In this document: positions 8,994-52,376 of the stretch, in pieces
How the letters are laid out: each line of letters starts with the position of its first letter
How positions within the stretch are numbered: the first letter of the stretch is position 1
Assembly (NCBI GenBank): GCA_009937605.1
Contig: JAACFG010000001.1
Span: forward strand, 9,527 to 73,526
Length of the DNA: 64,000 nt
Source: Gammaproteobacteria bacterium
GTDB taxonomy: Bacteria; Pseudomonadota; Gammaproteobacteria; Steroidobacterales; Woeseiaceae
Direction: 5' to 3'
The notes under the pieces: model-generated
Told to the model about the DNA's origin: nothing
The model's input: the letters and a program-made list of their open reading frames with translations, nothing else
The model's database searches: none
Program-made: the position numbers and the translations under genes

Positions 8994-11579
8994 ATGCATA
9001 ATTCAACGAAAAAAAAATCCAACTCACGTCACATTAGGCGACATAAGATGATTCGGGCGGTGATTGTCCTTCTCGGATTAGGCGTCATTACGGCCGTTGG
9101 CGCGGTCGCAGGCGTAGTCGGAGCTTATTACTATGTCCAGCCGGGACTGCCGGCCGCAGAGACTATTCGCGATATCCCGCTGCAGATTCCCCTGCGTATA
9201 TTCAGCCGCGATGGCCTCCTGGTCTCCGAGATCGGGGAGCGGCGGCGTATCCTGGTTACTTTCGACGATCTCCCGCAGCACGTGGTCCACGCGTTTGTCG
9301 CGGCTGAGGACCAGCGATTCTTTGTTCACCCGGGCATCGACTACCGCGGTATTCTGCGCGCGTTTGCTCAATTGGCCGCAACGGGTGATATCTCAAGCGG
9401 TGGCAGCACGCTAACGCAGCAGCTTGCTCGCGATTACTTCCTGACACGCGAACAGAAGTTCACTCGCAAGCTGCGCGAGGCATTTCTTGCTTACAAGATC
9501 GAGCAGGAATTCACGAAGGAGCAGATCATGGCGCTGTTCCTGAACAAGATGTTTTTCGGGCAGCGTGCCTACGGTGTCGCGGCGGCGGCGCAGGTCTATT
9601 TCAACAAGAATCTGGCCGACATCAACGAGGCAGAGGCGGCAACGCTGGCCGGTGTGCTGCCCGCACCGTCGCGCTATAACCCTGTCTACAGCGCAGCAAA
9701 CGCCGAGATTCGTCGAGGGTATGTATTGGGACGAATGCTCGACCTCGACTACATCGACGAGTCGGTCTATGAGCAAAACATGGCCTGGCCCATGGAATCA
9801 CGCCTGCATGGAACCGCCGTGGAGCTCAGCGCGCCGTTCGTCGCGGAAATGGTCCGCAGCGAGATGCTCAAGCGCTATGGTGAAGGCACCTATACCGATG
9901 GATACCAGGTCGTCACATCACTGGACTCGCGACTGCAGAAGGCTGCGAACTACTCGCTGCGCAACGGCCTGCTGGAGTTTACGCGGCGCCGCGGCTACAA
10001 GGGTCCGATTCAGAATGTCGAAGTAACAGACGATTTGCTGGCGACGCCATTCGAGGAATGGCCAGTCGAAATTCGTGAACTGCTTGAACAGTATGCGCCC
10101 GGCGGGCTTTCCACTGCGCTGGTTACGGCGGTCAATGAGAACAACAGCGCATCGCTGCTGTTGCGTGCGGGTGTAACGTCCGTGTTGCCGTGGGCTGGAA
10201 TAAAATGGGCGAAGCCGTTCATTGATCGTACGACAACCGGACCGGAGCCTGAGTCCGCGGCCGACGTACTGGCTGTTGGCGACCTTATCTATGTCATGCC
10301 CACCACGATGGGAATTTGGGCGCTTGCGCAGGTGCCCGAAGCGCAGGGCGCGGTCGTTTCGATCGACCCGTTTGATGGCGCAATCAATGCATTGACCGGC
10401 GGTTTCGATTTTACGACCAGTAAGTTCAATCGTGCCCGGCAAGCATTCCGGCAACCGGGCTCGTCCTTTAAACCATTTATCTATTCGGCGGCGCTGGAAC
10501 ATGGCAACACGCCGGCAACCGTTGTTCTCGACGCGCCCGTCGTAATCAACTCCTCGGAGCTCGAAGCCGTCTGGCGCCCGATCAACTACAGCGGTCGCTT
10601 CTATGGTCCGACGCGCATGCGTGAAGCTCTGAAGCGTTCGATGAACCTCGTATCGGTCCGCCTGCTGTTATTTGAGACGGGTGTCGGCAATGCCGTTCGT
10701 CATATAGCGAAGTTCGGTTTCGGCGGTGCCGCCCTGCCCCACAACGGGTCGCTTGCGCTGGGTGGCGGTGCTGCGTCGCCACTCGATATGGCACAGGGCT
10801 ACGCCACGCTTGCCAACGGTGGCCACGCGGTCAAGCCTTACGTGATCGATGCCATCTACGGGCCGGAAGGCGAAACCTTGTACCGCGCCGAACCCGCCAT
10901 CGTCTGTGATGAGTGCGTTCCATCCGACGACCCTGAGCTGGATTTCGACGATGAACTGGTTGCAGAACTGACGCTCGACGAGATGGCGGAGATTGCAACC
11001 GTATACCGGCCCGATGCGACGGCTGCGCCGGAGTTATTCGAAGACGTGGTGCTCGCGCCGCAGGCCGTTTCGCCCCAGAACATCTTTCTCGTGCAGGACA
11101 TGATGCGCGACGTCGTGCGGGCCGGCACTGGTCGCCGTGCCATGGCCCTCGGCCGCAATGACCTCTCCGGCAAGACAGGCACATCGAATGATCGACGCGA
11201 CGCGTGGTTCGGCGGTTTCAACGCTGACATCGCCGCCATTGTCTGGGTCGGATACGACGACGATCTCCCGCTCGGCCCGGGTGAAGAAGGGTCCCGCACC
11301 GCGCTCCCCATCTGGGTCGAATTTGCCCGTATTGCCCTGAACGGTGTCCCCAACAATCAGATGCCAATGCCGGACGGAATCGTCACGGTCCGTATTGATC
11401 GCGAAACCGGCTGTCCCGCGCGCGCTGGCCAGGCAAACGCCATATTTGAGGTGTTCAGGGAGGGTCACGTACCTGTATGCGAGGCTATCGACGACACACC
11501 AAGTATCTTCAATGACGCATCCGGGATCGATCCGGATCCCGAAGAAGAGTTGGGGGAAGACGACGAGTCGATCTTCTGA
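8994..11579 (+). CDS. mrcA: Penicillin-binding protein 1A (bifunctional transglycosylase/transpeptidase)
   Basis: Glycosyltransferase motif AAEDQRFFVHPGIDY. Transpeptidase motifs SSFKPF (SxxK) and SGKTGTSND (KTG). The start could instead be MIRAVIV at 9048. Confidence 0.9.
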   Translation: MHNSTKKKSNSRHIRRHKMIRAVIVLLGLGVITAVGAVAGVVGAYYYVQPGLPAAETIRDIPLQIPLRIFSRDGLLVSEIGERRRILVTFDDLPQHVVHAFVAAEDQRFFVHPGIDYRGILRAFAQLAATGDISSGGSTLTQQLARDYFLTREQKFTRKLREAFLAYKIEQEFTKEQIMALFLNKMFFGQRAYGVAAAAQVYFNKNLADINEAEAATLAGVLPAPSRYNPVYSAANAEIRRGYVLGRMLDLDYIDESVYEQNMAWPMESRLHGTAVELSAPFVAEMVRSEMLKRYGEGTYTDGYQVVTSLDSRLQKAANYSLRNGLLEFTRRRGYKGPIQNVEVTDDLLATPFEEWPVEIRELLEQYAPGGLSTALVTAVNENNSASLLLRAGVTSVLPWAGIKWAKPFIDRTTTGPEPESAADVLAVGDLIYVMPTTMGIWALAQVPEAQGAVVSIDPFDGAINALTGGFDFTTSKFNRARQAFRQPGSSFKPFIYSAALEHGNTPATVVLDAPVVINSSELEAVWRPINYSGRFYGPTRMREALKRSMNLVSVRLLLFETGVGNAVRHIAKFGFGGAALPHNGSLALGGGAASPLDMAQGYATLANGGHAVKPYVIDAIYGPEGETLYRAEPAIVCDECVPSDDPELDFDDELVAELTLDEMAEIATVYRPDATAAPELFEDVVLAPQAVSPQNIFLVQDMMRDVVRAGTGRRAMALGRNDLSGKTGTSNDRRDAWFGGFNADIAAIVWVGYDDDLPLGPGEEGSRTALPIWVEFARIALNGVPNNQMPMPDGIVTVRIDRETGCPARAGQANAIFEVFREGHVPVCEAIDDTPSIFNDASGIDPDPEEELGEDDESIF

Positions 11580-26205: not shown

Positions 26206-29130
26206 ATGAAAAATTCAATCGCACTAGCCGGGGTGACTTCCGCCCTGGTCCTCAGTCTTGCCGTGACACCTGCCAATATTGCGCAGGCACAGGAAGCAGA
26301 GGAATTGGAAGAAGTGGTCGTTACAGGATCACGTATTCGGCGCAACCCGCTGGACGAGGCTGTAGCCATCATGGAAATCGGAGCCGACGATATTGAGAGT
26401 ACCGGCTTAACGAACCTGGCCGACGCCTTGCAGCAGTTGCCAATTTCGGGGTCGGCGATCAATTCGCAATTCAACGTTCCCGGTAACTCTGGCTTCCCAC
26501 AGGATGGCTCAGGTATCGGTGCAGGCGCTGCGCAGTTGTCAATTCGTAACGTCAGCGCGAAACGCACCCTGGTGCTTGTCGATGGCAAGCGCTGGATCGC
26601 TGGCGCTTCCGCATCGGGCGTACCGGGCGCTGTTGACCTGAATACAATTCCGGACAACGTTATTCAACGCGTTGAAGTCCTGCAGGACGGCGCGTCCGCC
26701 ATTTACGGATCGGACGCGATCGGTGGCGTCGTCAATGTCATCACAAAGCAGACCTTTGAAGGCTTCCGGCTGGATGCCCAGACCGGCAGCTATATGTCTG
26801 AAGGCGACGGTGAATCCCTTGAGCTCGCAGCGCTGTTTGGCGCCGGCAATGAGACGACGAATCTTGTTCTGAGCCTGAGCTACAAGGACGAGGGCGGTAT
26901 CGAAACGTGGGACCGTGCGCGCTCTGCGTACCCGGTACCGGACACCACGAGCTGCGACGTACCAGGCACACGCTGCTCATCCTTCACGCCGCAGGCACGC
27001 CTTATCTTCGGGCCGAACATCCCGCCAGGCGTCGGCTTCCAGGACATTACGCTGAACGACGGCGTCCTGAATGATGGCGGAGCGAATATTCCGGAATGGG
27101 ACCCCACTGATCCGGATGGTGGCGCTGACTTCCATGCGTTCTCGGCCGCTGATCGTTTTAACTACAACGGTCCGGGCTACAACTTCCTGAGGACACCGAA
27201 CGAGCGCATCAATTTCTATGCGAACGTCCGCCATGAGCTCGCACCAAACGTCACACTGTTTGCGCGCGCGTCATACACGAATCGCTCGTCAGAAACCAAG
27301 GGCGCGCCGGAACCGCTGTGTCTCGGCAACGGCTGCGGAACCCGCATTACCGATAATTTCGTAATCGGAGCGGACAATCCGTACAACTTCACCGGCCTCG
27401 AATTATCGGTAGCAAATGGCAATCTCGAGTTCTTCGGCCGCAGGCCGATCGAGTCTGGTGGCCGCCTGTTCTTCCAGGACGTCAATACCTACATGATCAC
27501 AGCGGGCCTCGAAGGCGAATTCAACGCGGCAGATCGCAACTTCTATTGGGACTTGACGGCAGGCTATGGCGACAACCGCGGCTTCCAGGAGAAGTACAAC
27601 TCGCACAATGCGGCCAAGCTCCAGGTTGCCATGGGTCCACTGGCTGTGTGCGACGCGACGCCAGGTTGTGTGCCGTTCAATTTCTTCGGTGGCCAGGGTC
27701 CGGACGGAACTGGCTCGATCACCGAGGAGATGCTCGATTTCGTGCGCTATACGCAACGCGACTACAGTGAACAGACACTAAAGAATTACGCGTTCAATAT
27801 TGGTGGCGACGTTGTCGAGTTGCCCGGTGGAACGATGGGCTTCGCAGCCGGTTTGGAATATCGCGATCACGCCGGTTCATTCCGACCTGATCCAATTGCG
27901 GCGAGCGGCGATACGGCCGGCATTCCGTCAGGTCCGACAGATGGCGGCTTCGATGTCACCGAGTTTTATGGTGAGCTGAATATTCCCCTGGTTGCAGAAG
28001 CTGCATTTGCTGACATCCTCGAAGTCAGTTTGGCGGCACGATCCTCTGACTACAGTACGTCGGGATCCAAGTCGACCTACAAGGCAAGCGCCTTGTGGCG
28101 GCCCATCGATCAGTTGGGGTTCCGAGCCTCTCTCTCGACAGGCTTCAGGGCACCGGGAATAGGTGAGCTCTTCGGCGGCGCTGCGCGTGAAGATTTCACA
28201 AAGCTCGATCCCTGTGCAGACTACACGGCCACCGAGGGTTCGGATAACGGGGGCCGTGATACACCGCAACCGGCAAATATCCAGGCGAACTGTCAAACGC
28301 TGGGCGTTGATCCCGGTCTTACGCAGATCAACCCGCAGTTGTCCGCACTGTCAACGGGCAATGCTCAGCTTGAGCCTGAGGAATCGGACAACCAGACGTT
28401 TGGTATCGTCTACAGCCCCGCTTGGTCCGAAGGCCTGGCGTGGTCTTCCGGCATGACATTCTCCATCGACTTCTACCGAGTGGAGATTACCGATGCGGTA
28501 CAGGGAATCGCCCCCGGTGATCTTATTGATGCGTGTGTCGCTACCCTCGATGATATCTATTGCGACAACACGCCGCGAACGAGTTCCGGTCAGTTGGACA
28601 CCGTTCGGAACGAGCTGCGGAACATCGGCGCAATCGACGCTTCGGGTTACGACATCATGTTCAGTTACCTGAGCCCGGAAACACGTGCCGGCGCATTCAC
28701 GCTGAGAATCGATGCGACTCACCTGAACGAGTACAAGGAATCGACCAACAATCCGGACGCCTCGATAACGGTCAACGATCTGACGGGAAGGCATCCGGAC
28801 GAGACTTTCTTCCGCGCGTTCCCCGAATGGCGCAGCGTAACAACCCTGGAATGGCTCAAGGATCGATTCACAGGTTCGCTGCGGTTCCGCTGGGTTGATG
28901 AGATGCTCCTCGACAGCGGCAGCACGCTGGATTCTGCGATGTTCACCGACTTGCGCCTGAGCTGGAACCCGGACTGGATGAGTGACGGATTTACATTCAG
29001 TGTCGGCGTGAACAACTTGTTGGATGAGGACCCACCGGTATGCGACGCATGTGGCGTGATCGGCATGAGTCCGGTCTCACACGACCTTCCGGGGCGTGTC
29101 GGCTACCTGCGATTTACCTATCAGAACTGA
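26206..29130 (+). CDS. TonB-dependent outer-membrane receptor, substrate unknown
   Basis: Signal peptide …ANIAQA. Plug (EEVVVTGSRIRRNPLD) and a long barrel with TGFRAPGIGELFGG. The C-terminus …RFTYQN lacks the usual terminal aromatic residue. Confidence 0.85.
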   Translation: MKNSIALAGVTSALVLSLAVTPANIAQAQEAEELEEVVVTGSRIRRNPLDEAVAIMEIGADDIESTGLTNLADALQQLPISGSAINSQFNVPGNSGFPQDGSGIGAGAAQLSIRNVSAKRTLVLVDGKRWIAGASASGVPGAVDLNTIPDNVIQRVEVLQDGASAIYGSDAIGGVVNVITKQTFEGFRLDAQTGSYMSEGDGESLELAALFGAGNETTNLVLSLSYKDEGGIETWDRARSAYPVPDTTSCDVPGTRCSSFTPQARLIFGPNIPPGVGFQDITLNDGVLNDGGANIPEWDPTDPDGGADFHAFSAADRFNYNGPGYNFLRTPNERINFYANVRHELAPNVTLFARASYTNRSSETKGAPEPLCLGNGCGTRITDNFVIGADNPYNFTGLELSVANGNLEFFGRRPIESGGRLFFQDVNTYMITAGLEGEFNAADRNFYWDLTAGYGDNRGFQEKYNSHNAAKLQVAMGPLAVCDATPGCVPFNFFGGQGPDGTGSITEEMLDFVRYTQRDYSEQTLKNYAFNIGGDVVELPGGTMGFAAGLEYRDHAGSFRPDPIAASGDTAGIPSGPTDGGFDVTEFYGELNIPLVAEAAFADILEVSLAARSSDYSTSGSKSTYKASALWRPIDQLGFRASLSTGFRAPGIGELFGGAAREDFTKLDPCADYTATEGSDNGGRDTPQPANIQANCQTLGVDPGLTQINPQLSALSTGNAQLEPEESDNQTFGIVYSPAWSEGLAWSSGMTFSIDFYRVEITDAVQGIAPGDLIDACVATLDDIYCDNTPRTSSGQLDTVRNELRNIGAIDASGYDIMFSYLSPETRAGAFTLRIDATHLNEYKESTNNPDASITVNDLTGRHPDETFFRAFPEWRSVTTLEWLKDRFTGSLRFRWVDEMLLDSGSTLDSAMFTDLRLSWNPDWMSDGFTFSVGVNNLLDEDPPVCDACGVIGMSPVSHDLPGRVGYLRFTYQN

Positions 29131-34475: not shown

Positions 34476-36011
34476 ATGGCATTGATCAAACGTGCCCTGG
34501 CACGCGCGTTCACCAGGTGCGAGGCGGTATTCGAGTACGCGTTCGGCCAGCGAAACAACCCTTTCGTCTGGCTGGGAGCGCTCGGCTGGTATTTCTACTG
34601 GATCGTCGCAGCTACCGGCGTCTACCTGTATATCTTCTTTGACACTGGCGTCACTGATGCCTATGCGTCGGTCGAGTACATCACCAACGAACAGTGGTAC
34701 GCGGCCGGCTTGATGCGCAGCCTGCACCGCTACGCATCCGATGCCCTGGTCGTCGTCATTGTCCTGCACATCTTCCGTGAGTTCGCCCATGATCGCCTGC
34801 GTGGCAGGCGCTTTTTTGCCTGGCTGACCGGCGTGCCGCTGCTCGCCTTTATCTACATCTGCGGCATCAGTGGCTACTGGCTGGTGTGGGACCAACTGGC
34901 ACAGTACATAGCAATAGCAACCACCGAGTGGCTCGACACCTTACCCATGTTTGGTGAGCCCATCGCCAATAACTTCCTCAACAACACCACGCTCGGCGGC
35001 CGCTTCTTCACGCTGATGGTATTCATTCATATCTTTGGGCCGCTGTTCATGCTGCTGTTGATGTGGGTACACATCCAGCGGCACTCCGGCGCGCGGGTGA
35101 ACCCGCCCAAAGAACTGGCAATCGGCACAATGGTCATGCTCGTGGTGCTGTCATTTGTTTACCCGGCCGTCAGCCAGGGTCCGGCCGACCTCGACTTGGT
35201 GCCGACGGACGTCGGACTCGACTGGTTCTACCTCGCTGCGTATCCATTGCTCGACATTGTGCCTGGCGGGCAGCTCTGGCTGTATATCGTCGGTGGCCTC
35301 GTGTTGCTGGCACTGCTTCCCTGGGCGCCACCCGCTAAGCCCGTCAAACCTGCCCTGGTCAATCTCGACAATTGCAACGGCTGTACGCGTTGCTTCGACG
35401 ACTGCCCGTTCGGCGCCATTTCCATGGTGCCGCGTAGTGACGGACGCGCCTATGATGTTGAGCCGGTCGTCAACGCCGCAAACTGCACCAGTTGCGGCAT
35501 ATGTGCCGGATCCTGCCCGACGTCCACACCGTTCCGGCGCGCGGTCCCGATCCAGCCCGGTATCGAACTGCCCGATCGAACGATCGGCGCCTTACGTGAA
35601 GAACTCATTGCGGAACCGGACACAGAAGCCGCGGGACCGCGGGTACTCGTCTTCGGCTGCGACACGAGCAATGTCGATGAATTGCACGGGGACGGCACGC
35701 GCGTGATCAAGCTGCCGTGCGTCGGCATGCTGCCGCCATCTTTCGTCGACTTTGCCCTGTCGCGCCGCTTCGCGGACGGCGTCATGATTGCCGGCTGTGC
35801 CGAGTGCGACTGCTACCATCGCCTGGGCAACGAATGGACCATGGCTCGCATGGCGGGCGAGCGAGATCCATATCTGCGCAAGCGCGTAGATACGCGCCGT
35901 CTGTCATTGAACTGGTTGCCGCGCAATGCGGGACGCCGGCGCAGAAAGGCCCTTGAGGCGTTCCACTCGGCGTTGGCCGGCATTGACCTGAAGGAGACAG
36001 ACGATGAATAG
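34476..36011 (+). CDS. Fusion protein: cytochrome b (N-terminal, di-heme-like) + 2x[4Fe-4S] ferredoxin + MvhD/FlpD-like domain
   Basis: Cytochrome b-like His pairs (RSLHRYASDALVVVIVLHIFREF; FFTLMVFIHIFGPLFMLLLMWVHIQRH). CNGCTRCFDDCP and CTSCGICAGSCP cluster motifs. C-terminal FGCD…KLPCVGML…ADGVMIAGCAECDCYH matches the hydrogenase delta-subunit-like domain. Confidence 0.8.
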   Translation: MALIKRALARAFTRCEAVFEYAFGQRNNPFVWLGALGWYFYWIVAATGVYLYIFFDTGVTDAYASVEYITNEQWYAAGLMRSLHRYASDALVVVIVLHIFREFAHDRLRGRRFFAWLTGVPLLAFIYICGISGYWLVWDQLAQYIAIATTEWLDTLPMFGEPIANNFLNNTTLGGRFFTLMVFIHIFGPLFMLLLMWVHIQRHSGARVNPPKELAIGTMVMLVVLSFVYPAVSQGPADLDLVPTDVGLDWFYLAAYPLLDIVPGGQLWLYIVGGLVLLALLPWAPPAKPVKPALVNLDNCNGCTRCFDDCPFGAISMVPRSDGRAYDVEPVVNAANCTSCGICAGSCPTSTPFRRAVPIQPGIELPDRTIGALREELIAEPDTEAAGPRVLVFGCDTSNVDELHGDGTRVIKLPCVGMLPPSFVDFALSRRFADGVMIAGCAECDCYHRLGNEWTMARMAGERDPYLRKRVDTRRLSLNWLPRNAGRRRRKALEAFHSALAGIDLKETDDE

Positions 36012-37008: not shown

Positions 37009-41368
<4,360 letters not shown>

Positions 41369-43026: not shown

Positions 43027-43257
43027 GCTCTTGTTAAATAAGATTTAATCTCAACAAGAATCCGGGGCTCAGCATTGCATGGCTGTCGCGATTTCAGTAA
43101 ACTGCGCGAGCTTTTTTGACCGGCACGGCGGTCAAACCGGCCGAAAAGCGAATCTCCGGCATGACCGGGCCAGCAGGACGCTGGCGATCCCAGTATTCGC
43201 GACTTCCGGAAATTGAAATGATTGCGATCGTGGCGACGGTTGCAGGGTGGACAAGTA

Positions 43258-45648
43258 ATGATACGAAAATCGTTCCTGAGCCTGGTGGGCCTGGTTCTGG
43301 CAAGCACGGCGAAAGCCGACTGGGCGCTCAACATGCCCAGGGGCGTAACCGATCTCAGCGTCGAGACGTTCGAACTGCACATGATGGTCTTCTGGTGGTG
43401 CGTTGCCATCGGGGTCGTCGTTTTCGGCGTCATGATCATCTCGCTGTTCAAGCACAGAAAGTCGAAAGGCGCGGAACCTGCGTCGTTCTCTCACAGTACG
43501 GTTGCGGAGGTCATCTGGACGGCGATTCCCGTTGTCATACTGCTGATCATGGCGGTGCCGGCAGCGGAGACGATGATCCGGCTCGAAGATTCCCGCGACC
43601 CTGATATATCCATCGTGGTCACGGGCTACCAATGGAAGTGGCACTACAAATACCAGGACGAAGGCATTGAGTTCTACTCGAGCCTCGCGCGCCCGAGCCT
43701 GGCCGCCCGTCCGAAGCAATCGGGCGTCGACGTGAACAGCGTTGAGAACTACCTGCTTGAAGTTGACCGCCCCCTGGTCGTGCCGAGGGGCGCAAAAGTT
43801 CGCGTGCTGCTGACATCAAATGACGTCATCCACTCGTGGTGGGTTCCTGATTTGGCAATCAAGAAAGACGCTATTCCAGGCATCGTTAACGAAACCTGGT
43901 TCAACGCCAATGAAACCGGCACTTTTCGCGGCCAGTGCGCCGAGTTGTGCGGCAAGGATCACGGCTACATGCCGGTCGTTGTCGAAGTGGTTGAGCCCGA
44001 GGCCTACCAGGCCTGGGTCAACACCCACAGTGATGGCGAAGAAAGACTCGCCAGCACACACGACGCACACGCCGCGGACCACGACGAACATGGCCCCGAG
44101 AAGGGCATCAAGCGCTGGTTGTTCTCAACCAACCACAAAGACATTGGCACGATGTACCTCATCTTCAGCCTCGTCATGTTCTTTGTTGGCGGCGCAATGG
44201 CGATGGTCATTCGCTCGGAACTAGCTGTCCCGGGCCTGCAATTCGTTCATCCGGAGTTCTTCAACTCGATGACCACGATGCACGCTTTGATCATGGTCTT
44301 CGGCGCAGTAATGCCGGCCTTCGTTGGCCTCGCCAACTGGATGATCCCGCTGATGATCGGCGCACCCGACATGGCGCTGCCACGCATGAACAACTGGTCG
44401 TTCTGGATCCTGCCGGTCGCGTTCGGCATCCTGCTTTCGACGCTCCTTATGCCGGGCGGCGCTCCTGCCAGTGGCTGGACGATGTACCCGCCGCTCGTCC
44501 TTCAGACCGGCGATGCGTTCCCGTTCCTGATTTTCTCCGTCCACCTGATGGGCATCTCGTCGATCATGGGCTCCATCAACGTGATCGTGACGATCATCAA
44601 CATGCGCGCGCCTGACATGACGCTGCTCAAGATGCCGATGTTTGTGTGGACCTGGCTGATTACCGCGTATCTGTTGATCGCCGTGATGCCGGTACTGGCT
44701 GGCGCGGTTACCATGCTGCTGACCGACCAGTTCTTCGGCACGAGCTTCTTCCTCGCGGCCGGCGGTGGCGATCCCGTCATGTTCCAGCACATCTTCTGGT
44801 TCTTCGGGCACCCCGAGGTCTACATCATGATTCTGCCGGCCTTCGGTGTCGTATCAGAAATCATCCCGACGTTCTCGCGCAAGAAACTGTTCGGTCACGA
44901 CTCGATGGTATACGCGGCATCGTGTATCGCATTCCTGTCGTTCATCGTCTGGGCGCACCACATGTTCACGGTGGGCATGCCGTTAACGGGCCAGCTGTTC
45001 TTCATGTTCGCGACAATGCTCATCGCTGTTCCGACCGGTGTGAAGATTTTCAACTGGGTTGCGACGATGTGGCGCGGCTCGATGACGTTCGAGACGCCGA
45101 TGCTGTTCTCGCTGGCATTCGTCTTCCTGTTCACAATCGGTGGTTTCTCCGGCCTGATGCTCGCGATCCAGCCAGCGGATGTGCAGTACCACGACAGCTA
45201 TTTCGTTGTGGCTCACTTCCACTACGTACTGGTCCCGGGTTCGGTCTTCGCGATCATGGCGGGCGCCTACTACTGGCTCCCGAAGTGGACCGGCCATATG
45301 TATAACGAGGGTCTCGGCAAGCTGCACTTCTGGACCTCGACGATCTTCGTGAACCTCACGTTCTTCCCAATGCACTTCCTTGGGCTGGCCGGCATGCCGC
45401 GTCGTATCCCGGACTACTCAACCCAGTTCACGGACTTCAACACGATCGCCAGTGTCGGCGCCATTGGCTTCGGCCTGTCGCAATTGCTGTTCGTGCTTGT
45501 GATTTTGACCGCAAAGAAGGGCGCCAAGGCGACCGACCGGGTTTGGGAAGGTTCGCACGGTCTCGAATGGACGGTACCGTCGCCGGCGCCGTGGCACACG
45601 TTTACGACGCCGCCGAAAGCGCGCATCGCTAACGAATCTTTCGAGTAG
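43258..45648 (+). CDS. aa3-type cytochrome c oxidase subunit II and subunit I encoded as one uninterrupted ORF
   Basis: N-terminal part: signal peptide, 2 TM segments and CuA (HSWWVPDL…CAELCGKDHGYM). From about residue 270: STHDAHAADHDEHGPEKGIKRWLFSTNHKDIGTMYL… is a full CoxA. I verified codon by codon that there is no stop between them (43981-44160). Confidence 0.8.
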   Translation: MIRKSFLSLVGLVLASTAKADWALNMPRGVTDLSVETFELHMMVFWWCVAIGVVVFGVMIISLFKHRKSKGAEPASFSHSTVAEVIWTAIPVVILLIMAVPAAETMIRLEDSRDPDISIVVTGYQWKWHYKYQDEGIEFYSSLARPSLAARPKQSGVDVNSVENYLLEVDRPLVVPRGAKVRVLLTSNDVIHSWWVPDLAIKKDAIPGIVNETWFNANETGTFRGQCAELCGKDHGYMPVVVEVVEPEAYQAWVNTHSDGEERLASTHDAHAADHDEHGPEKGIKRWLFSTNHKDIGTMYLIFSLVMFFVGGAMAMVIRSELAVPGLQFVHPEFFNSMTTMHALIMVFGAVMPAFVGLANWMIPLMIGAPDMALPRMNNWSFWILPVAFGILLSTLLMPGGAPASGWTMYPPLVLQTGDAFPFLIFSVHLMGISSIMGSINVIVTIINMRAPDMTLLKMPMFVWTWLITAYLLIAVMPVLAGAVTMLLTDQFFGTSFFLAAGGGDPVMFQHIFWFFGHPEVYIMILPAFGVVSEIIPTFSRKKLFGHDSMVYAASCIAFLSFIVWAHHMFTVGMPLTGQLFFMFATMLIAVPTGVKIFNWVATMWRGSMTFETPMLFSLAFVFLFTIGGFSGLMLAIQPADVQYHDSYFVVAHFHYVLVPGSVFAIMAGAYYWLPKWTGHMYNEGLGKLHFWTSTIFVNLTFFPMHFLGLAGMPRRIPDYSTQFTDFNTIASVGAIGFGLSQLLFVLVILTAKKGAKATDRVWEGSHGLEWTVPSPAPWHTFTTPPKARIANESFE

Positions 45649-45651
45649 AAC

Positions 45652-45762
45652 GTGGACGAGAAGGAGCGCAAAAAGAACATTCGCCGCACGACGCTGATCG
45701 TCGTGGCGGTTGCTCTCGCGTTCTACGTCGGCTTCATCATGATGGGCGTGCTGCGTTCCTGA
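45652..45762 (+). CDS. Possible small membrane protein between coxA and cox11
   Basis: GTG-started 36-codon [39 protein letters not shown]: a basic N-terminus plus one TM segment. It fills the coxA-cox11 gap exactly. It is below the ORF-track length cutoff. Confidence 0.4.
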
Positions 45763-45763
45763 T

Positions 45764-46291
45764 ATGCATCGTAATCTCGTAACATCGTTGTTGGTGGTCG
45801 TTGTCGGAGCGTTTGCTTTCGGCTACGCGCTCGTGCCGCTTTACGACGTGTTCTGCGAGATCACGGGCTTCGGCGGTCGCACCAATGCGGAAGCCGTGGC
45901 CAGGGTTGAGGCGCCGGACCTGTCGCGCGAGATTCGGATTGAGTTCGTCACGACGATCAACTCGTACGCACCATTCGAGTTCGGAGCCGACGCGGACAGC
46001 ATGATGGTCAACCCGGGCAAGATGTACTTCGCGACGTTTACCGCGAAGAATCTGACCGACAAGGACAAGGTTGCCCAGGCCGTGCCGAGCGTTGCACCCG
46101 GGGCGGCCGCGGAACACTTCGTGAAGATCGAGTGTTTTTGCTTCGACCAGCAGGAATTCCTCGCGAACGAAGAGCGGGCCATGCCACTGCAGTTCATTGT
46201 CGATCCGGACCTGCCGGATTACGTAGACACCATTACCCTGCAATACACATTCTTCGACACCGCTCCTGTGGCGTCGAATAAAAAATACTGA
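45764..46291 (+). CDS. ctaG: Cytochrome c oxidase assembly protein Cox11/CtaG
   Basis: N-terminal TM segment and the copper-binding CFCF motif ([11 protein letters not shown]). 175 aa. Confidence 0.9.
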
Positions 46292-46310: not shown

Positions 46311-47180
46311 ATGACCACTCACACAGACGAACATTATTACGTCCCACACGGCAGCCACTGGCCCGTTGTCGGCTCAATCGGCCTGCTGTTCCTGATGACT
46401 GGCGTATCAAGCTGGTTGAACGGCGCGGATTTTGGCTTCTACGTAATGCTGGTGGGCTTTGCCATACTCATCTTTATGATTACTGGCTGGTTCGGCACGG
46501 TGATCGGCGAAAGCCAGAGCGGTCTGTACAACGCACAGGTAGACAAGTCTTTCCGTCAGGGCATGTTCTGGTTCATCTTCTCGGAGGTCATGTTCTTCGC
46601 GGCCTTCTTCGGCGCGCTGTTCTACGCACGCAATATGTCGATTCCCTGGCTTGGCGGCGACAGCAACAACTTTTTTACAAACCTGCTCTTGTGGGAAGGC
46701 TACGAAAGCACCTGGCCGACCAACGGCCCGGGGAACGTTGGCGGAGAATACGAGATAATGCCGCCGTTCGGCCTGCCGCTGATCAACACGGCGCTGCTGC
46801 TAACGTCATCGATCACGGTGACGATCGCACACCACGCACTGATCGAGGGCAGGCGTGCGCAGCTGAAGCTGTTCCTCGCTGCCACGTTCCTGCTTGGCTT
46901 CATATTCGTCTACCTGCAAGGCGTCGAGTACATCCATGCCTACCAGGACCTGAACCTGAAGCTCACGTCAGGCATCTACGGATCGACGTTCTTCATGCTG
47001 ACCGGCTTCCACGGCATGCACGTGACGATTGGCGCCATCATGCTGACGATCATGTTCTTCCGTGTATTGAAGGGGCACTTCACAGCGGAGAACCATTTCG
47101 CGTTCGAGGCTGTCGCCTGGTACTGGCACTTTGTCGACGTTGTCTGGATCGGCCTGTACGTCTTCGTCTACTGGATGTAA
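46311..47180 (+). CDS. coxC: Cytochrome c oxidase subunit III
   Basis: 289 aa, 7 TM segments. TGFHGMHVTIGAIML and WYWHFVDVVW motifs. Confidence 0.9.
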   Translation: MTTHTDEHYYVPHGSHWPVVGSIGLLFLMTGVSSWLNGADFGFYVMLVGFAILIFMITGWFGTVIGESQSGLYNAQVDKSFRQGMFWFIFSEVMFFAAFFGALFYARNMSIPWLGGDSNNFFTNLLLWEGYESTWPTNGPGNVGGEYEIMPPFGLPLINTALLLTSSITVTIAHHALIEGRRAQLKLFLAATFLLGFIFVYLQGVEYIHAYQDLNLKLTSGIYGSTFFMLTGFHGMHVTIGAIMLTIMFFRVLKGHFTAENHFAFEAVAWYWHFVDVVWIGLYVFVYWM

Positions 47181-47416: not shown

Positions 47417-48151
47417 TTGGACAGGGGCGGGCAGTATATCGTGAACACCGGGACGAAAAAGCAACTGCCGAGCTGGCTTCCGCTCGTCGTCGGCGCGCTG
47501 CTCGTCGCCCAGTTCGCCGGGCTGGGCGCCTGGCAAATCAGCCGCGGGCTCGAGAAACGAGCGGACCAACAGATGTTCCGCGATGAGACCGGATTCGCCT
47601 CCTGGCATGATGGCATGGAAGTCCGGCCGTTCCAGCGAATCAAAGCAACCGGCAGCTACGATGGCGCCCACCAGGTACTGCTCGAGAACATTATCGTTAA
47701 CAGCCGCTATGGCTACTACGTGATCACGCCATTGGTCGGTCTCGATGGCGAGCCCGTTCTGCTCGTCAACCGCGGCTGGATCGAGAAGACCACTGAACCG
47801 CTGGACATGACGCGCCTCGACGTTCCACCCGGGCGCGTGACAGTGCGTGGCCGGGCGGGATCACTACCACGAGCCGGAATGAAGATGGGCGAAGCCTTCC
47901 GGCCCGGGCAGGATTGGCCGATGGAGGCTGTCTATCCATCGACAGAGGAGGTAGCCGTGGCGCTCGGCACCGACGTCCAGCCATTTGTCCTGCTTATGGA
48001 TCATGAGGAAGACAGCGGCTTCTTCCGTCACTGGGTGCCGACCGAGTTCGGTCCTGGCAAGCACTTCGGCTACGCGCTGCAGTGGTTTGCCATGGCCGCT
48101 GTCCTGTCCGGCCTCCTGGCCTGGAACTACCGTAAGAAGCGCTTCAAGTAA
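47417..48151 (+). CDS. SURF1-family cytochrome oxidase assembly protein
   Basis: N-terminal TM segment followed by GLGAWQISRGLEKR (the SURF1 'WQ..R' motif), and a C-terminal TM segment YALQWFAMAAV. The start is TTG 47417 or GTG 47441. Confidence 0.8.
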   Translation: MDRGGQYIVNTGTKKQLPSWLPLVVGALLVAQFAGLGAWQISRGLEKRADQQMFRDETGFASWHDGMEVRPFQRIKATGSYDGAHQVLLENIIVNSRYGYYVITPLVGLDGEPVLLVNRGWIEKTTEPLDMTRLDVPPGRVTVRGRAGSLPRAGMKMGEAFRPGQDWPMEAVYPSTEEVAVALGTDVQPFVLLMDHEEDSGFFRHWVPTEFGPGKHFGYALQWFAMAAVLSGLLAWNYRKKRFK

Positions 48152-48726: not shown

Positions 48727-49638
48727 ATGGACAATGCATTGAACACGAGAGTAGAGGCCTACATCGCCTGGCGCGATTACTACGAGCTGACCAAGCCGCG
48801 TGTCGTCATGTTGATCGTATTCACGGCAATCGTCGGTATGTTTGTTTCTGTGCCCGGCTGGCCCGGCGCCATGCCACTCATTTTTGGCACGCTCGGCATT
48901 GGGCTCGCGTCATCGTCGGCTGCAGTCTACAACCACGTGCTTGATGCGCGCATCGACATCCAGATGATGCGCACGCGGGGTCGCCCGTTGCCGCAAGGCA
49001 AGTTGACAGAGAGGTCCGCAATCACGTTTGCGACCGTGCTGTGCATCATCTCAATGCTGATCCTCTGGTTCCTCGTGAACCCGCTGACAGCGATCCTCAC
49101 TTTCTGTTCACTGATTGGCTATGCGGTCGTTTACACAGCATGGTTAAAGCGCGCGACGCCGCAAAATATTGTGATCGGTGGGGCGGCGGGTGCTGCGCCG
49201 CCCGTTCTCGGCTGGACGTCAGTGACCAACCAGGTCGAAGCCGGGGCCTTGCTGATGTTCCTTATCGTGTTCGTGTGGACACCACCGCACTTCTGGGCGC
49301 TGGCGATCGCGCGCAAGGAAGAGTACGCCAAGGTCGACATCCCGATGTTGCCCGTCACGCATGGTGAGGCGTACACGCGACTCAATATTCTGCTGTATAC
49401 GATCCTGCTCGTACTCGTCACGATCCTGCCGTACCTGATCGGCATGAGTGGCATTATCTACCTGCTGGTCGCGCTCGTGCTCGACGCGTACTTCCTGTAC
49501 TACGCCATCCAGATGTACCGAGTGCGTGACGACATGGAATTGCCGATGAAGACCTTCAAGTTCTCCATCAGCTATCTAGGGTTCCTGTTCGCAGCGCTGC
49601 TCGTCGATCACTACCTGTTGTTCCAGATCAGCCTGTAG
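48727..49638 (+). CDS. cyoE: Protoheme IX farnesyltransferase (heme O synthase)
   Basis: YYELTKPRVV…, UbiA-family Asp-rich motif NHVLDARID, multi-TM, 303 aa. Confidence 0.9.
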   Translation: MDNALNTRVEAYIAWRDYYELTKPRVVMLIVFTAIVGMFVSVPGWPGAMPLIFGTLGIGLASSSAAVYNHVLDARIDIQMMRTRGRPLPQGKLTERSAITFATVLCIISMLILWFLVNPLTAILTFCSLIGYAVVYTAWLKRATPQNIVIGGAAGAAPPVLGWTSVTNQVEAGALLMFLIVFVWTPPHFWALAIARKEEYAKVDIPMLPVTHGEAYTRLNILLYTILLVLVTILPYLIGMSGIIYLLVALVLDAYFLYYAIQMYRVRDDMELPMKTFKFSISYLGFLFAALLVDHYLLFQISL

Positions 49639-50135: not shown

Positions 50136-52376
50136 TCACGCCCGGCGCCTGAGCTGGTCGCCAATCGGTAGCGTCCGGATGCGCTTTCCTGTCGCCGCAA
50201 ATATCGCGTTGGTCAGCGCAGGGGCCGCCGATGGCAGCCCTATTTCACCGACGCCGGTCGGAATATCGTTGAATGGCAGGATGTGGGTCTCGAACTTCGC
50301 CGGGAACGCGGCAATTCGGGCCAGCGGATAATTGTCGAAGTTCGATTGTTCCACCTGGCCATCCTTGACCGTGATTTCCAGCCCCAGCGCAGTACTCAGA
50401 CCGTCGATCGTGCCGCCTTCGAGCTGCGCCGCAACGGCGTTTGGGTGGACCGCAAGACCGCAGTCGATCGCTGCGACGATGCGCTCTATGGTCAGTTCAC
50501 CCGCGTCACTTACGGTAACCTCCATCGCATGCGCCGCGTAGCCACCGAACGTAAAGTGAGTGGCGAAGCCAATGCCGCGACCTTTCGGTAGTTCTTGCGT
50601 GTAGTCGATCCGTTCGGCGACAAAATCGACAAGGCGCGCGAGGCGACCCGGATTGAACGTAGGCCCACCGTGGTTGCTGTAGCCGAGCTCGCGATCTTCG
50701 CCGAGCATTTCCAGTCGCAGCTGCAGCGGGTCCTGCCCGGTTTCGTGCGCGATCTCATCGAGGAAGCTTTGGACGACAAAAGCATTGGCCGTATGGGCCG
50801 GTGCTCGCCAGGAACCTCTCGGCAGGCCGATGGCATTGTGGAAGTATTCCAGGCGCATGTTGTCGACCATGCGGCGAGGGAAGTCATCCGGATACAACTC
50901 CGGCGTCCACAATTCATCATCCGGCTTGTTCGGGCGACGATAGTGTTTGCTGCCGCTCGCAAGTCGCTGCGTCCACGCGACCACTTTGCCATCGTCATCG
51001 AGGCCAGCTCGCATCTCGTGCAGGCCGCCCGGTCGATAGAAGTCGTTCCTCATGTCGTCCTCGCGCGACCACAGGAGTTGTATCGGCCACCCGGTTCGCT
51101 GCGAGATCAGCGTCGCCTCGGTGACATAGTCGACCGGCATCCGACGGCCGAAGCCGCCGCCAACGCGCGTCATGTCGACGTGGATGTTTTCGCGCGGCAA
51201 GCCCGTTACCCTGGCGGCCGCTCGCGACGCGCCGCTCGGCATCTGGGTCGGAACGATGACGTGACAACGGTCTTCCTGCACGTACGCGTAGCAGTTCTGC
51301 GGTTCCATGGGTGCGTGCGCGACAAACGGTATCCGGTACCGATGCTCGACAACCTTCGTGGCGTCGGCCATCGCGCTGTCAAAGTTGCCGTCATCGAGAA
51401 CGACCTGGCCGCGAGTCTGCAGCATCGCCTCGTTTTCCTGCCAGAACTTGTTACTGCTGTCGTCCGCACTCGGGCTTTCCTGCCACTTGATGTCCAGGGC
51501 GGCCTTACCCTCCATCGCCGCCCACGTCGACGTGGCAACCACGGCAACGCCGCTTGCCAATAGAAAATAGGGCTCGCCCATCTTCGGGCCCTCGATAGCA
51601 AACACATCGAGTACGCCTTCAATCTGCCGAGCGCGGCTATCGTCGAATGACTCGACACCGGCGTTCAGAACAGGCGCTCGCGCAATTGCGGCGTAACGCA
51701 TGTCTGGCCGGATCGTGTCCGTGCCGTATTTCGCCCGGCCCGTAACAATTTCGAACGCGTCAACCGTTTTCCTGCGCGACCCGACGATTCGATAATCGTC
51801 TACGCTCTTTAATTCTGGCGGTTCATCCGGCAGGTCGAGTTGCGCCGCATCTGCAATCAGGCTGCCGTACGAAATCTCAACGCCCGCTGCGCTGCACAGC
51901 ACGACGCCCGGCCGGGTCGTGCACTGTGCCGGATCGACACCAATACGTGCCGCGGCCGCCCGCACCAGCTGCTGGCGCGCGATAGCTCCGACCTCGCGCA
52001 TGTAATCCCAGTTGTCTGTCAGGCCCGTGCTGCCACCAACACCCTGGCCACCGTATTTCCAGGTGTAGCCGTCCTCGGTCTTAACGATGCCGAGAGGCAT
52101 CTGCCGGACGCTGACCTTGGACCACTCAGCATCCAGTTCCTCGGCCACCAGCATCGGTAGTGCCGTGCGTATTCCCTGGCCTATTTCCGGCTGATTGCTG
52201 CCGATGATGACGTTGCCGTCGGCATCGATCTGCACGAAGAAGCCGATCATGCGCTCCCGGTCGCCCTCGGCCAACGCGGCGGCCGGTATTCCGATAACGA
52301 GGCTGCCGGCTACGCCGATACCCATGACAATGAACTCGCGACGGTTCAGCCGGACTTCCTGCCTGCGGGCACTCAC
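50136..52376 (-). CDS. Molybdopterin-dependent aldehyde/isoquinoline oxidoreductase large (beta) subunit, Tat-exported
   Basis: Twin-arginine signal RLNRREFIVMG…AAALA. 746 aa of xanthine-dehydrogenase-family a/b hammerhead and MoCo-binding type. 4-nt overlap with the 2Fe-2S subunit gene. Confidence 0.8.
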   Translation of the reverse strand: MSARRQEVRLNRREFIVMGIGVAGSLVIGIPAAALAEGDRERMIGFFVQIDADGNVIIGSNQPEIGQGIRTALPMLVAEELDAEWSKVSVRQMPLGIVKTEDGYTWKYGGQGVGGSTGLTDNWDYMREVGAIARQQLVRAAAARIGVDPAQCTTRPGVVLCSAAGVEISYGSLIADAAQLDLPDEPPELKSVDDYRIVGSRRKTVDAFEIVTGRAKYGTDTIRPDMRYAAIARAPVLNAGVESFDDSRARQIEGVLDVFAIEGPKMGEPYFLLASGVAVVATSTWAAMEGKAALDIKWQESPSADDSSNKFWQENEAMLQTRGQVVLDDGNFDSAMADATKVVEHRYRIPFVAHAPMEPQNCYAYVQEDRCHVIVPTQMPSGASRAAARVTGLPRENIHVDMTRVGGGFGRRMPVDYVTEATLISQRTGWPIQLLWSREDDMRNDFYRPGGLHEMRAGLDDDGKVVAWTQRLASGSKHYRRPNKPDDELWTPELYPDDFPRRMVDNMRLEYFHNAIGLPRGSWRAPAHTANAFVVQSFLDEIAHETGQDPLQLRLEMLGEDRELGYSNHGGPTFNPGRLARLVDFVAERIDYTQELPKGRGIGFATHFTFGGYAAHAMEVTVSDAGELTIERIVAAIDCGLAVHPNAVAAQLEGGTIDGLSTALGLEITVKDGQVEQSNFDNYPLARIAAFPAKFETHILPFNDIPTGVGEIGLPSAAPALTNAIFAATGKRIRTLPIGDQLRRRA

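Follow-up and report, generated by a model that had tools for sequence, protein, structure and literature searches.

The canonical proteobacterial operon for an aa3-type (A-family) cytochrome c oxidase has the order coxB-coxA-ctaG-coxC, together with SURF1 and ctaB, and is found in this form in other members of Woeseia and the Woeseiaceae. In A-family oxidases, the CuA domain is periplasmic and the N-terminus of subunit I is cytoplasmic. The locus described here has the same gene order as these operons and contains all of their domains. Once 43 nt are restored to its assembled sequence, the tail of CoxB, a spacer containing GGAG, and the beginning of CoxA (MTTAV…HGP.KG..RWLF.TNHKDIG) also match those of the Woeseiaceae aa3 operons. 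The only difference is that this assembly lacks the 43-nt block carrying the coxB stop codon, the ribosome-binding site, and the coxA start codon, which leaves the two genes in one uninterrupted open reading frame. The headline of a preliminary description of this DNA, that the frame encodes a genuine fusion with a paradoxical topology, is not supported, since the stop and start codons are present at this site in every other assembly and sequencing run of the population in which it was found.

Two kinds of described phenomena bear on such a reading frame. Continuous cox1/2 reading frames occur in the mitochondria of Acanthamoeba castellanii, Dictyostelium discoideum, and the Pleosporales (PMC5626475, refs 69-71 therein), and the present locus resembles them in having subunits I and II in a single frame. 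In the mitochondrial cases, however, COX1 precedes COX2 and the arrangement is conserved within lineages, whereas here COX2 precedes COX1 and the arrangement is confined to one metagenome-assembled genome (MAG). On grounds of both order and conservation, this reading frame is not a member of the natural cox1/2-type fusions. The second phenomenon is the misassembly of metagenomes, for which strain mixtures are a recognised source and which includes erroneous indels (PMC9661791, metaMIC). The small-indel misassemblies described there likewise involve a block indel private to one assembly, a polymorphic site, and coexisting strains. The present case differs from them in that the deletion starts at a single-nucleotide polymorphism (SNP) and is exactly one k long, a signature that we infer here and did not find described in the literature on misassembly.

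The coxB-coxA Reading Frame as Assembled

The window, by which we mean the whole 64,000-nt stretch of DNA analysed, lies on contig C230 of a Woeseiaceae MAG from marine sediment (G000; 232 contigs, 86.6% complete). Positions 43258–45648 of its forward strand form a single open frame of 796 codons, which begins with the ATG at 43258 (a TTG at 43222 is an alternative upstream start), contains no internal stop, and ends with the stop codon at 45646–45648. Pfam assigns to its product the COX2_TM domain (PF02790) at aa 21–102, the COX2 domain (PF00116) at aa 118–245, and the COX1 domain (PF00115) at aa 295–736, the last with an E-value of 6.5e-159 and covering positions 1–435 of the 436 in the model. 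The NCBIfam profile for CoxB (TIGR02866) scores 194.8 bits against a cut-off of 147.7, and that for CtaD/CoxA (TIGR02891), which matches aa 287–787, reaches 680.6 bits where the cut-off is 670.75. By these family profiles the subunit II half and the subunit I half, the latter matched to the model of the 12-TM heme-copper subunit I, are both complete, in one frame. The CoxB part carries the CuA ligand motif CAELCGKDHGYM, which follows the family pattern H…CxELCGxxHxxM, and has hydrophobic segments at aa 37–67 and 79–110, where the family has two N-terminal transmembrane helices. Seen against the data presented below, coxB is represented on the forward strand by codons 1–268 (43258–44061), with its last two codons and its stop codon absent; the breakpoint falls between 44061 and 44062; and coxA runs on the same strand from codon 7 (GAC, Asp) to its stop codon (44062–45648), with its start codon absent.

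The properties of the junction itself are those given in the preliminary description, which had quoted the junction peptide correctly and reported a single 796-codon frame. There is no stop codon, and in-frame ATG, GTG, and TTG codons are absent between the GTG at 43987 (codon 244), which is inside the end of the cupredoxin domain, and the TTG at 44119 (codon 288), which encodes the L of RWLFSTNHKDIG inside the conserved CoxA N-terminus. The first in-frame ATG after this TTG, at 44152, is also within the conserved CoxA N-terminus. As had been stated, the linker lacks a hydrophobic segment; it is strongly hydrophilic (highest Kyte-Doolittle mean −0.08, for 19-aa windows starting at approximately aa 241–285), and it contains no recognisable processing site. 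The topological argument built on these features is sound: a periplasmic CuA domain and a cytoplasmic N-terminus of subunit I would be joined with no transmembrane segment between them. The TGATG at 44031–44035 (forward strand), to which attention had been drawn, is indeed out of frame, and it is a chance occurrence rather than an overlap of stop and start codons, because the peptide read across it in frame, HSDGEERLAS, extends CoxB with the tail that relatives have. A sequencing error consisting of two indels near this TGATG was considered and rejected, given that this in-frame reading matches the CoxB tails of relatives and that the real stop and start codons are in the missing block. Initiation of coxA at the TTG at 44119 or at a non-canonical codon was likewise set aside as unnecessary, an ATG being present in the block.

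The Junction in Other Data From the Same Population

Two sets of independent data cover the site. Logan contigs of four public runs from four studies (X1–X4) were aligned to positions 43600–44500 of the window, and they show no differences from it on either side of 44061/44062 (the contig from X3, for example, aligns over 43633–44061 and 44062–44283). In X1, X3, and X4, 43 letters are inserted between positions 44061 and 44062, while in X2 contigs with loose ends enter the same 43-nt block from the left and from the right. Coverage of the junction in these four runs is wholly explained by contigs that carry the block, and the direct 44061/44062 junction was not found in any of their contigs. 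In addition, exact look-up of genes close to the site, namely that for CtaG and a 191-aa gene at 48151, retrieved loci from eight independent assemblies, six from JGI (3300045292, 3300041081, 3300041024, 3300041076, 3300045368, and 3300045268) and two from ENA (ERZ23498692 and ERZ23499532). All 11 of the loci that span the site in these eight assemblies align to the window in two blocks, one ending at 44061 and the other starting at 44062, with exactly 43 nt extra between them. Most of the 11 are 99.8–99.96% identical to the window; identity is lower in L062 (97–98%) and, for its left flank, in L056 (91%).

The block has the sequence [A/C]AGAATTAATTCGGAGTACTAGGGTATGACTACTGCAGTAGTA and can be read in three parts. 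Its 5′ part, [A/C]AG AAT TAA, supplies the last two coxB codons and the stop codon, so that CoxB ends with …EERLASTH[K/Q]N. Its middle part is a 16-nt spacer containing GGAG, a Shine-Dalgarno sequence that serves as the ribosome-binding site. Its 3′ part, ATG ACT ACT GCA GTA GTA, supplies the first six coxA codons (MTTAVV), after which the sequence continues as DAHAADHDEHGPEKGIKRW…. The separate CoxB product with its own stop codon, which is lacking in the window, is thus found in all eight independent assemblies, with TAA after …RLASTH[K/Q]N, as are the ATG of coxA and the GGAG upstream of it. Gene calls on the site-spanning loci consist of a CoxB of 270 aa and a CoxA of 534 aa, the latter beginning with MTTAVVDAHAADHDEHGPEKG (MTTAVVDAH…). 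Because 43 equals 3 × 14 + 1, the frames of coxB and coxA differ in the population, and it is the loss of the block that places both in one frame.

Searches for the fused form gave results that differ in weight. Exact look-up of the fused protein identified no assembly on record that has it. For the 60-mer at 44032–44091, in which every 31-mer spans the junction, no run was listed, a weak negative in that only two words were sampled, while the flanks of the junction occur in at least 20 runs. Neither the junction nor the left flank had an exact match among the JGI metagenome contigs and GTDB genomes searched, a result that is uninformative because records close to the window may be missing from the searched sets.

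The Junction in Relatives

The preliminary description had proposed a comparison of the junction in the closest genomes and an inspection of reads, and such comparisons, with the independent assemblies and runs above and with the relatives below, favour sequence error among the three readings that it offered. A junction query (aa 215–330 of the fused product) was compared with 153 other species of the genus, and in none of them is the coxB/coxA junction open; an uninterrupted match was obtained in the source MAG only. In 31 species, coxB and coxA share a frame but are separated by TAA or TAG, and the other matching species gave two separate matches. The usual junction in these relatives consists of a CoxB tail ending in …DGEAKLASAQ* or …DGDAKLASAQ*, a spacer with GGAG, and a CoxA beginning MTTAVADAH…HGPxKGxxRWLFSTNHKDIG. 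The 43-nt block restores this pattern to the present locus: CoxB ends in …LAS..*, the spacer reads CGGAGTA…GGTATG, and CoxA starts with MTTAV…. Elsewhere in the order, some families have a CoxB with a C-terminal cytochrome c domain (caa3 type, CxxCH), a domain found in no CoxB of this genus.

Several apparent fusions in other genomes and collections were followed up and dismissed. Equal open-frame lengths hinted at fusions in seven genomes of relatives, among them members of sister families (G040, G027, G031, G025, G016, G113, and G165), and the DNA shows stops between the genes in all of them, the two doubtful cases G113 and G165 included; open-frame length is no guide to fusion here. In a collection of 5.8 billion proteins, those combining COX2 with COX1 were rejected as genuine fusions; they are singletons, the best of them 59–61% identical, and come mostly from very long contigs, and two of the three that were read (P0002 and P0003) contain out-of-frame stretches typical of frameshift errors. 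The same collection contains no near-identical fused protein, the window’s own included. As a separate observation, in the MAG of another species (G021) a 22-nt stretch of coxB is perfectly duplicated in tandem, and the spacer is missing from the coxB/coxA junction, where there is a 59-nt gap. This gap would fit either recurrent artefacts or a deletion-prone locus.

Origin of the 43-nt Gap

Judged on these sequence comparisons, the coxB-coxA fusion is very probably an assembly artefact in which 43 nt between 44061 and 44062 have been lost. All other assemblies and runs carry the stop and start codons in the block, which implies that the oxidase is an ordinary one; in the organism itself, coxB and coxA would be two ordinary adjacent genes of an aa3-type oxidase operon with the proposed order coxB, coxA, small ORF, ctaG, coxC, SURF1, ctaB. 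The position of the gap suggests how it may have arisen. The window and six near-identical contigs have only three polymorphic sites in approximately 2 kb around the junction, and the missing block begins with one of the three, a base that is A in two assemblies and C in the others. In run X2, two contigs at the edge of the block agree at 0.98, and both the A and the C alleles appear to coexist there. With SNPs as dense as they are locally, a breakpoint would abut one by chance in roughly 0.3–0.6% of cases. No microhomology was found at the breakpoint, which is neutral between an artefact and a real deletion.

The length of the gap may be informative as well. Overlaps between contig ends of the source MAG are 94 nt long in 23 pairs, which implies a final k of 95, and have a secondary peak at 42 nt. 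An overlap of 42 nt is k − 1 for k = 43, so that the length of the gap matches a plausible assembly k, although with three pairs in the peak this is thin evidence; k lists that include 43 are in common use with MEGAHIT. The gap may thus have formed at a SNP bubble in a strain-mixed population, where a multi-k de Bruijn assembler working at k = 43 would have joined the unitigs on either side of the bubble as if they overlapped by k − 1. If the unitigs flanking a bubble were concatenated in this way, the expected product would be a deletion with its first base at the SNP and a length of exactly k. This mechanism, which we infer from the geometry of the gap, and the value of k would remain provisional parts of the explanation. 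We know of no documented assembler bug that yields exactly such a result.

Deletions of a similar kind occur in other assemblies of this population. In a comparison of approximately 61 kb of the contig with 30 independent loci, no indel other than the 43-nt gap was private to the source MAG. Four of the other loci have private deletions of their own. L071 lacks 110 nt of a class A penicillin-binding protein gene, and L081 lacks 70 nt of a TonB-dependent receptor gene, at a site flanked by the 5-nt direct repeat CTACC; in L065 the loss is 148 nt of nirS, and in L063 it is 127 nt of a molybdopterin oxidoreductase gene. The four lengths are not multiples of three, and each deletion disrupts a conserved gene. 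A scan of the source MAG for perfect short tandem duplications of the artefact type gave ordinary repeats only.

Alternative Explanations

Against an artefact stands the consideration that a de Bruijn assembler normally should not create a junction that lacks k-mer support. The 43-nt deletion might then be real and private to the strain that dominates the source sample, a reading that we regard as unlikely. Such a strain would make a read-through protein in which the CuA domain is outside and the N-terminus of subunit I must be inside with no transmembrane segment between them, making the native topology impossible and inactivating the aa3 oxidase, so that the cell would use its other terminal oxidase or oxidases and denitrification. 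In keeping with this, junctions in short-read de Bruijn assemblies are normally supported by reads, and neither N runs nor scaffolding gaps occur in the MAG; contig C208 carries a second locus for an A-family oxidase, with a subunit I that is 40% identical, and NirS and eNOR are encoded in the window, such that loss of the oxidase could be tolerated in anoxic sediment. The CTACC repeats flanking the 70-nt deletion in L081 are also of a kind often seen at real deletions. However, the deletion was found in none of the eight assemblies and none of the four runs of the population, not even as a minor contig, although these sequences are mostly at least 99.8% identical to the window, and the two sampled junction words were in no listed run. 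Its left edge would have to have fallen on a SNP bubble by chance, with a length that happens to fit a plausible assembly k, and the downstream assembly genes show no decay. That one Woeseiaceae strain really carries the deletion and also expresses an in-frame CoxB-CoxA read-through protein is quite unlikely. Were this so, the strain would be a natural experiment on the direct attachment of a periplasmic CuA domain to the N-terminus of subunit I, which is cytoplasmic, with the aa3 oxidase either inactivated or rescued by proteolysis or by internal initiation at the TTG at 44119.

A functional fusion, cleaved after translation or inserted in an unusual manner and thus a bacterial counterpart of the mitochondrial cox1/2 frames, is exceedingly improbable. 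The completeness of both domains, with full-length family scores in one frame, and the existence of continuous cox1/2 frames in the mitochondria of Acanthamoeba, Dictyostelium, and Pleosporales (PMC5626475) speak for it. Yet the arrangement is not conserved, being absent from the 153 other species and from all near-identical assemblies; in the known mitochondrial fusions COX1 comes before COX2, the reverse of the order here and one that the topology allows; the linker provides neither a transmembrane segment nor a recognisable processing site; and the other COX2+COX1 proteins that were read in the collection do not look genuine. Among the readings offered in the preliminary description, sequence error has thus gained support from the 43 nt present elsewhere, while a genuine paradoxical fusion has lost it, with no instance in 153 species.

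Implications for Annotation

With an assembly artefact as the preferred explanation, the biological weight of the locus is small, as it would be an ordinary aa3-type oxidase operon in a Woeseiaceae bacterium. Its consequences for databases are more immediate, because the MAG is a species representative and automatic annotation will report from it a fused COX2-COX1 protein that the population does not have. Moreover, individual assemblies of this strain-mixed sediment population each have private block deletions of 43–148 nt by which core genes are broken or fused. A fusion, a pseudogene, or a “missing start codon” that is known from one MAG alone consequently needs to be checked in independent assemblies or reads before it is interpreted.

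The Remainder of the Operon

The rest of the operon, all on the forward strand, is undamaged. Between coxA and ctaG lies a 36-codon reading frame (45652–45762) with a GTG start, whose translation is a peptide with a single transmembrane segment. This gene was called in the JGI assemblies that cover 45652–45762 and is absent from the calls on two ENA loci. It is followed by ctaG/cox11 (45764–46291; Pfam CtaG_Cox11, E 9.7e-47), encoding a copper-insertion assembly factor, by coxC for subunit III (46311–47180; Pfam COX3, E 3.6e-57), and by a gene for a SURF1-family assembly factor (47417–48151; Pfam SURF1, E 2.1e-32), each of them intact. The undamaged part also includes a gene for a transmembrane, thioredoxin-like protein and an intact gene for a UbiA-family prenyltransferase (48727–49638; Pfam UbiA, E 1.4e-66), which, to judge from its position in the operon, is probably the heme O synthase CtaB/CyoE.

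Block deletions and indels in related assemblies

Four blocks, of 110, 70, 148 and 127 nt, are each missing from a single JGI contig of the population to which the window belongs, and each is present in the window and in all other contigs. All four lie within genes: the 110-nt block (window 9286-9395; absent from L071) in a class A PBP gene, the 70-nt block (28475-28544; absent from L081) in a TonB-dependent receptor gene, the 148-nt block (38158-38305; absent from L065) in nirS, and the 127-nt block (51251-51377; absent from L063) in a molybdopterin oxidoreductase gene. None of the four lengths is a multiple of three, and the 70-nt block missing from L081 is flanked by a direct repeat, CTACC.

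The coxB/coxA locus of G021, a MAG of a different species in the same genus (L022; contig C164, 7500-10900, minus strand), is also anomalous. Its coxB contains a perfect 22-nt tandem duplication, in which the unit TCTTCTGGTGGTGCGTCGCGAT is present twice, and a 59-nt gap has removed the coxB stop codon, the spacer and the coxA start; pieces of coxA occur in differing frames on a second contig of this genome, C163. These anomalies look like the same class of misassembly, involving blocks of sequence, at the same locus as in the window.

Smaller length differences occur at window 34635-34641, an indel hotspot within the cytochrome b/FeS gene adjoining eNOR. The contig L077 carries five additional nucleotides there, which split the gene into products of 80 and 432 aa, while L078 has 21 nt fewer than the window.

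Apparent fusions in public collections

Five public oxidase proteins close to that of the window (P0002, P0003, P0013, P0016 and P0023) contain or end in long out-of-frame stretches, e.g., …LPAALPRAGRHAAP…. The source contigs of P0002 and P0003 are 0.5-1 Mb in length, a size that points to long-read assemblies with indel errors, and the COX2+COX1 architectures in the public protein collection are probably only apparent, originating from such errors. In the genome search, matches to coxB and coxA were assigned equal open-frame lengths despite intervening stop codons (e.g., in the genomes G040, G113 and G165), so open-frame length alone is unusable as evidence of fusion.

Other oxidases and a small ORF

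In three genomes from other families of the order (G040, G027 and G031; loci L016-L018), CoxB bears a C-terminal cytochrome c domain, with the motifs CSACH, CAACH and CLVCH, and these oxidases are therefore of the caa3 type, whereas no such domain is present on CoxB in the window's own genus. Between coxA and ctaG in the window lies a 36-codon ORF (45652-45762, plus strand) with a GTG start and one transmembrane helix, whose product may be a minor subunit of the oxidase or a peptide involved in its assembly; the JGI assemblies covering the site include it among their gene calls, and the two ENA loci do not. The genome also contains a second A-family heme-copper oxidase locus, on contig C208 (2028-7887; L013, L014), whose subunits I and II share 40% and 25% identity, respectively, with those of the window oxidase.
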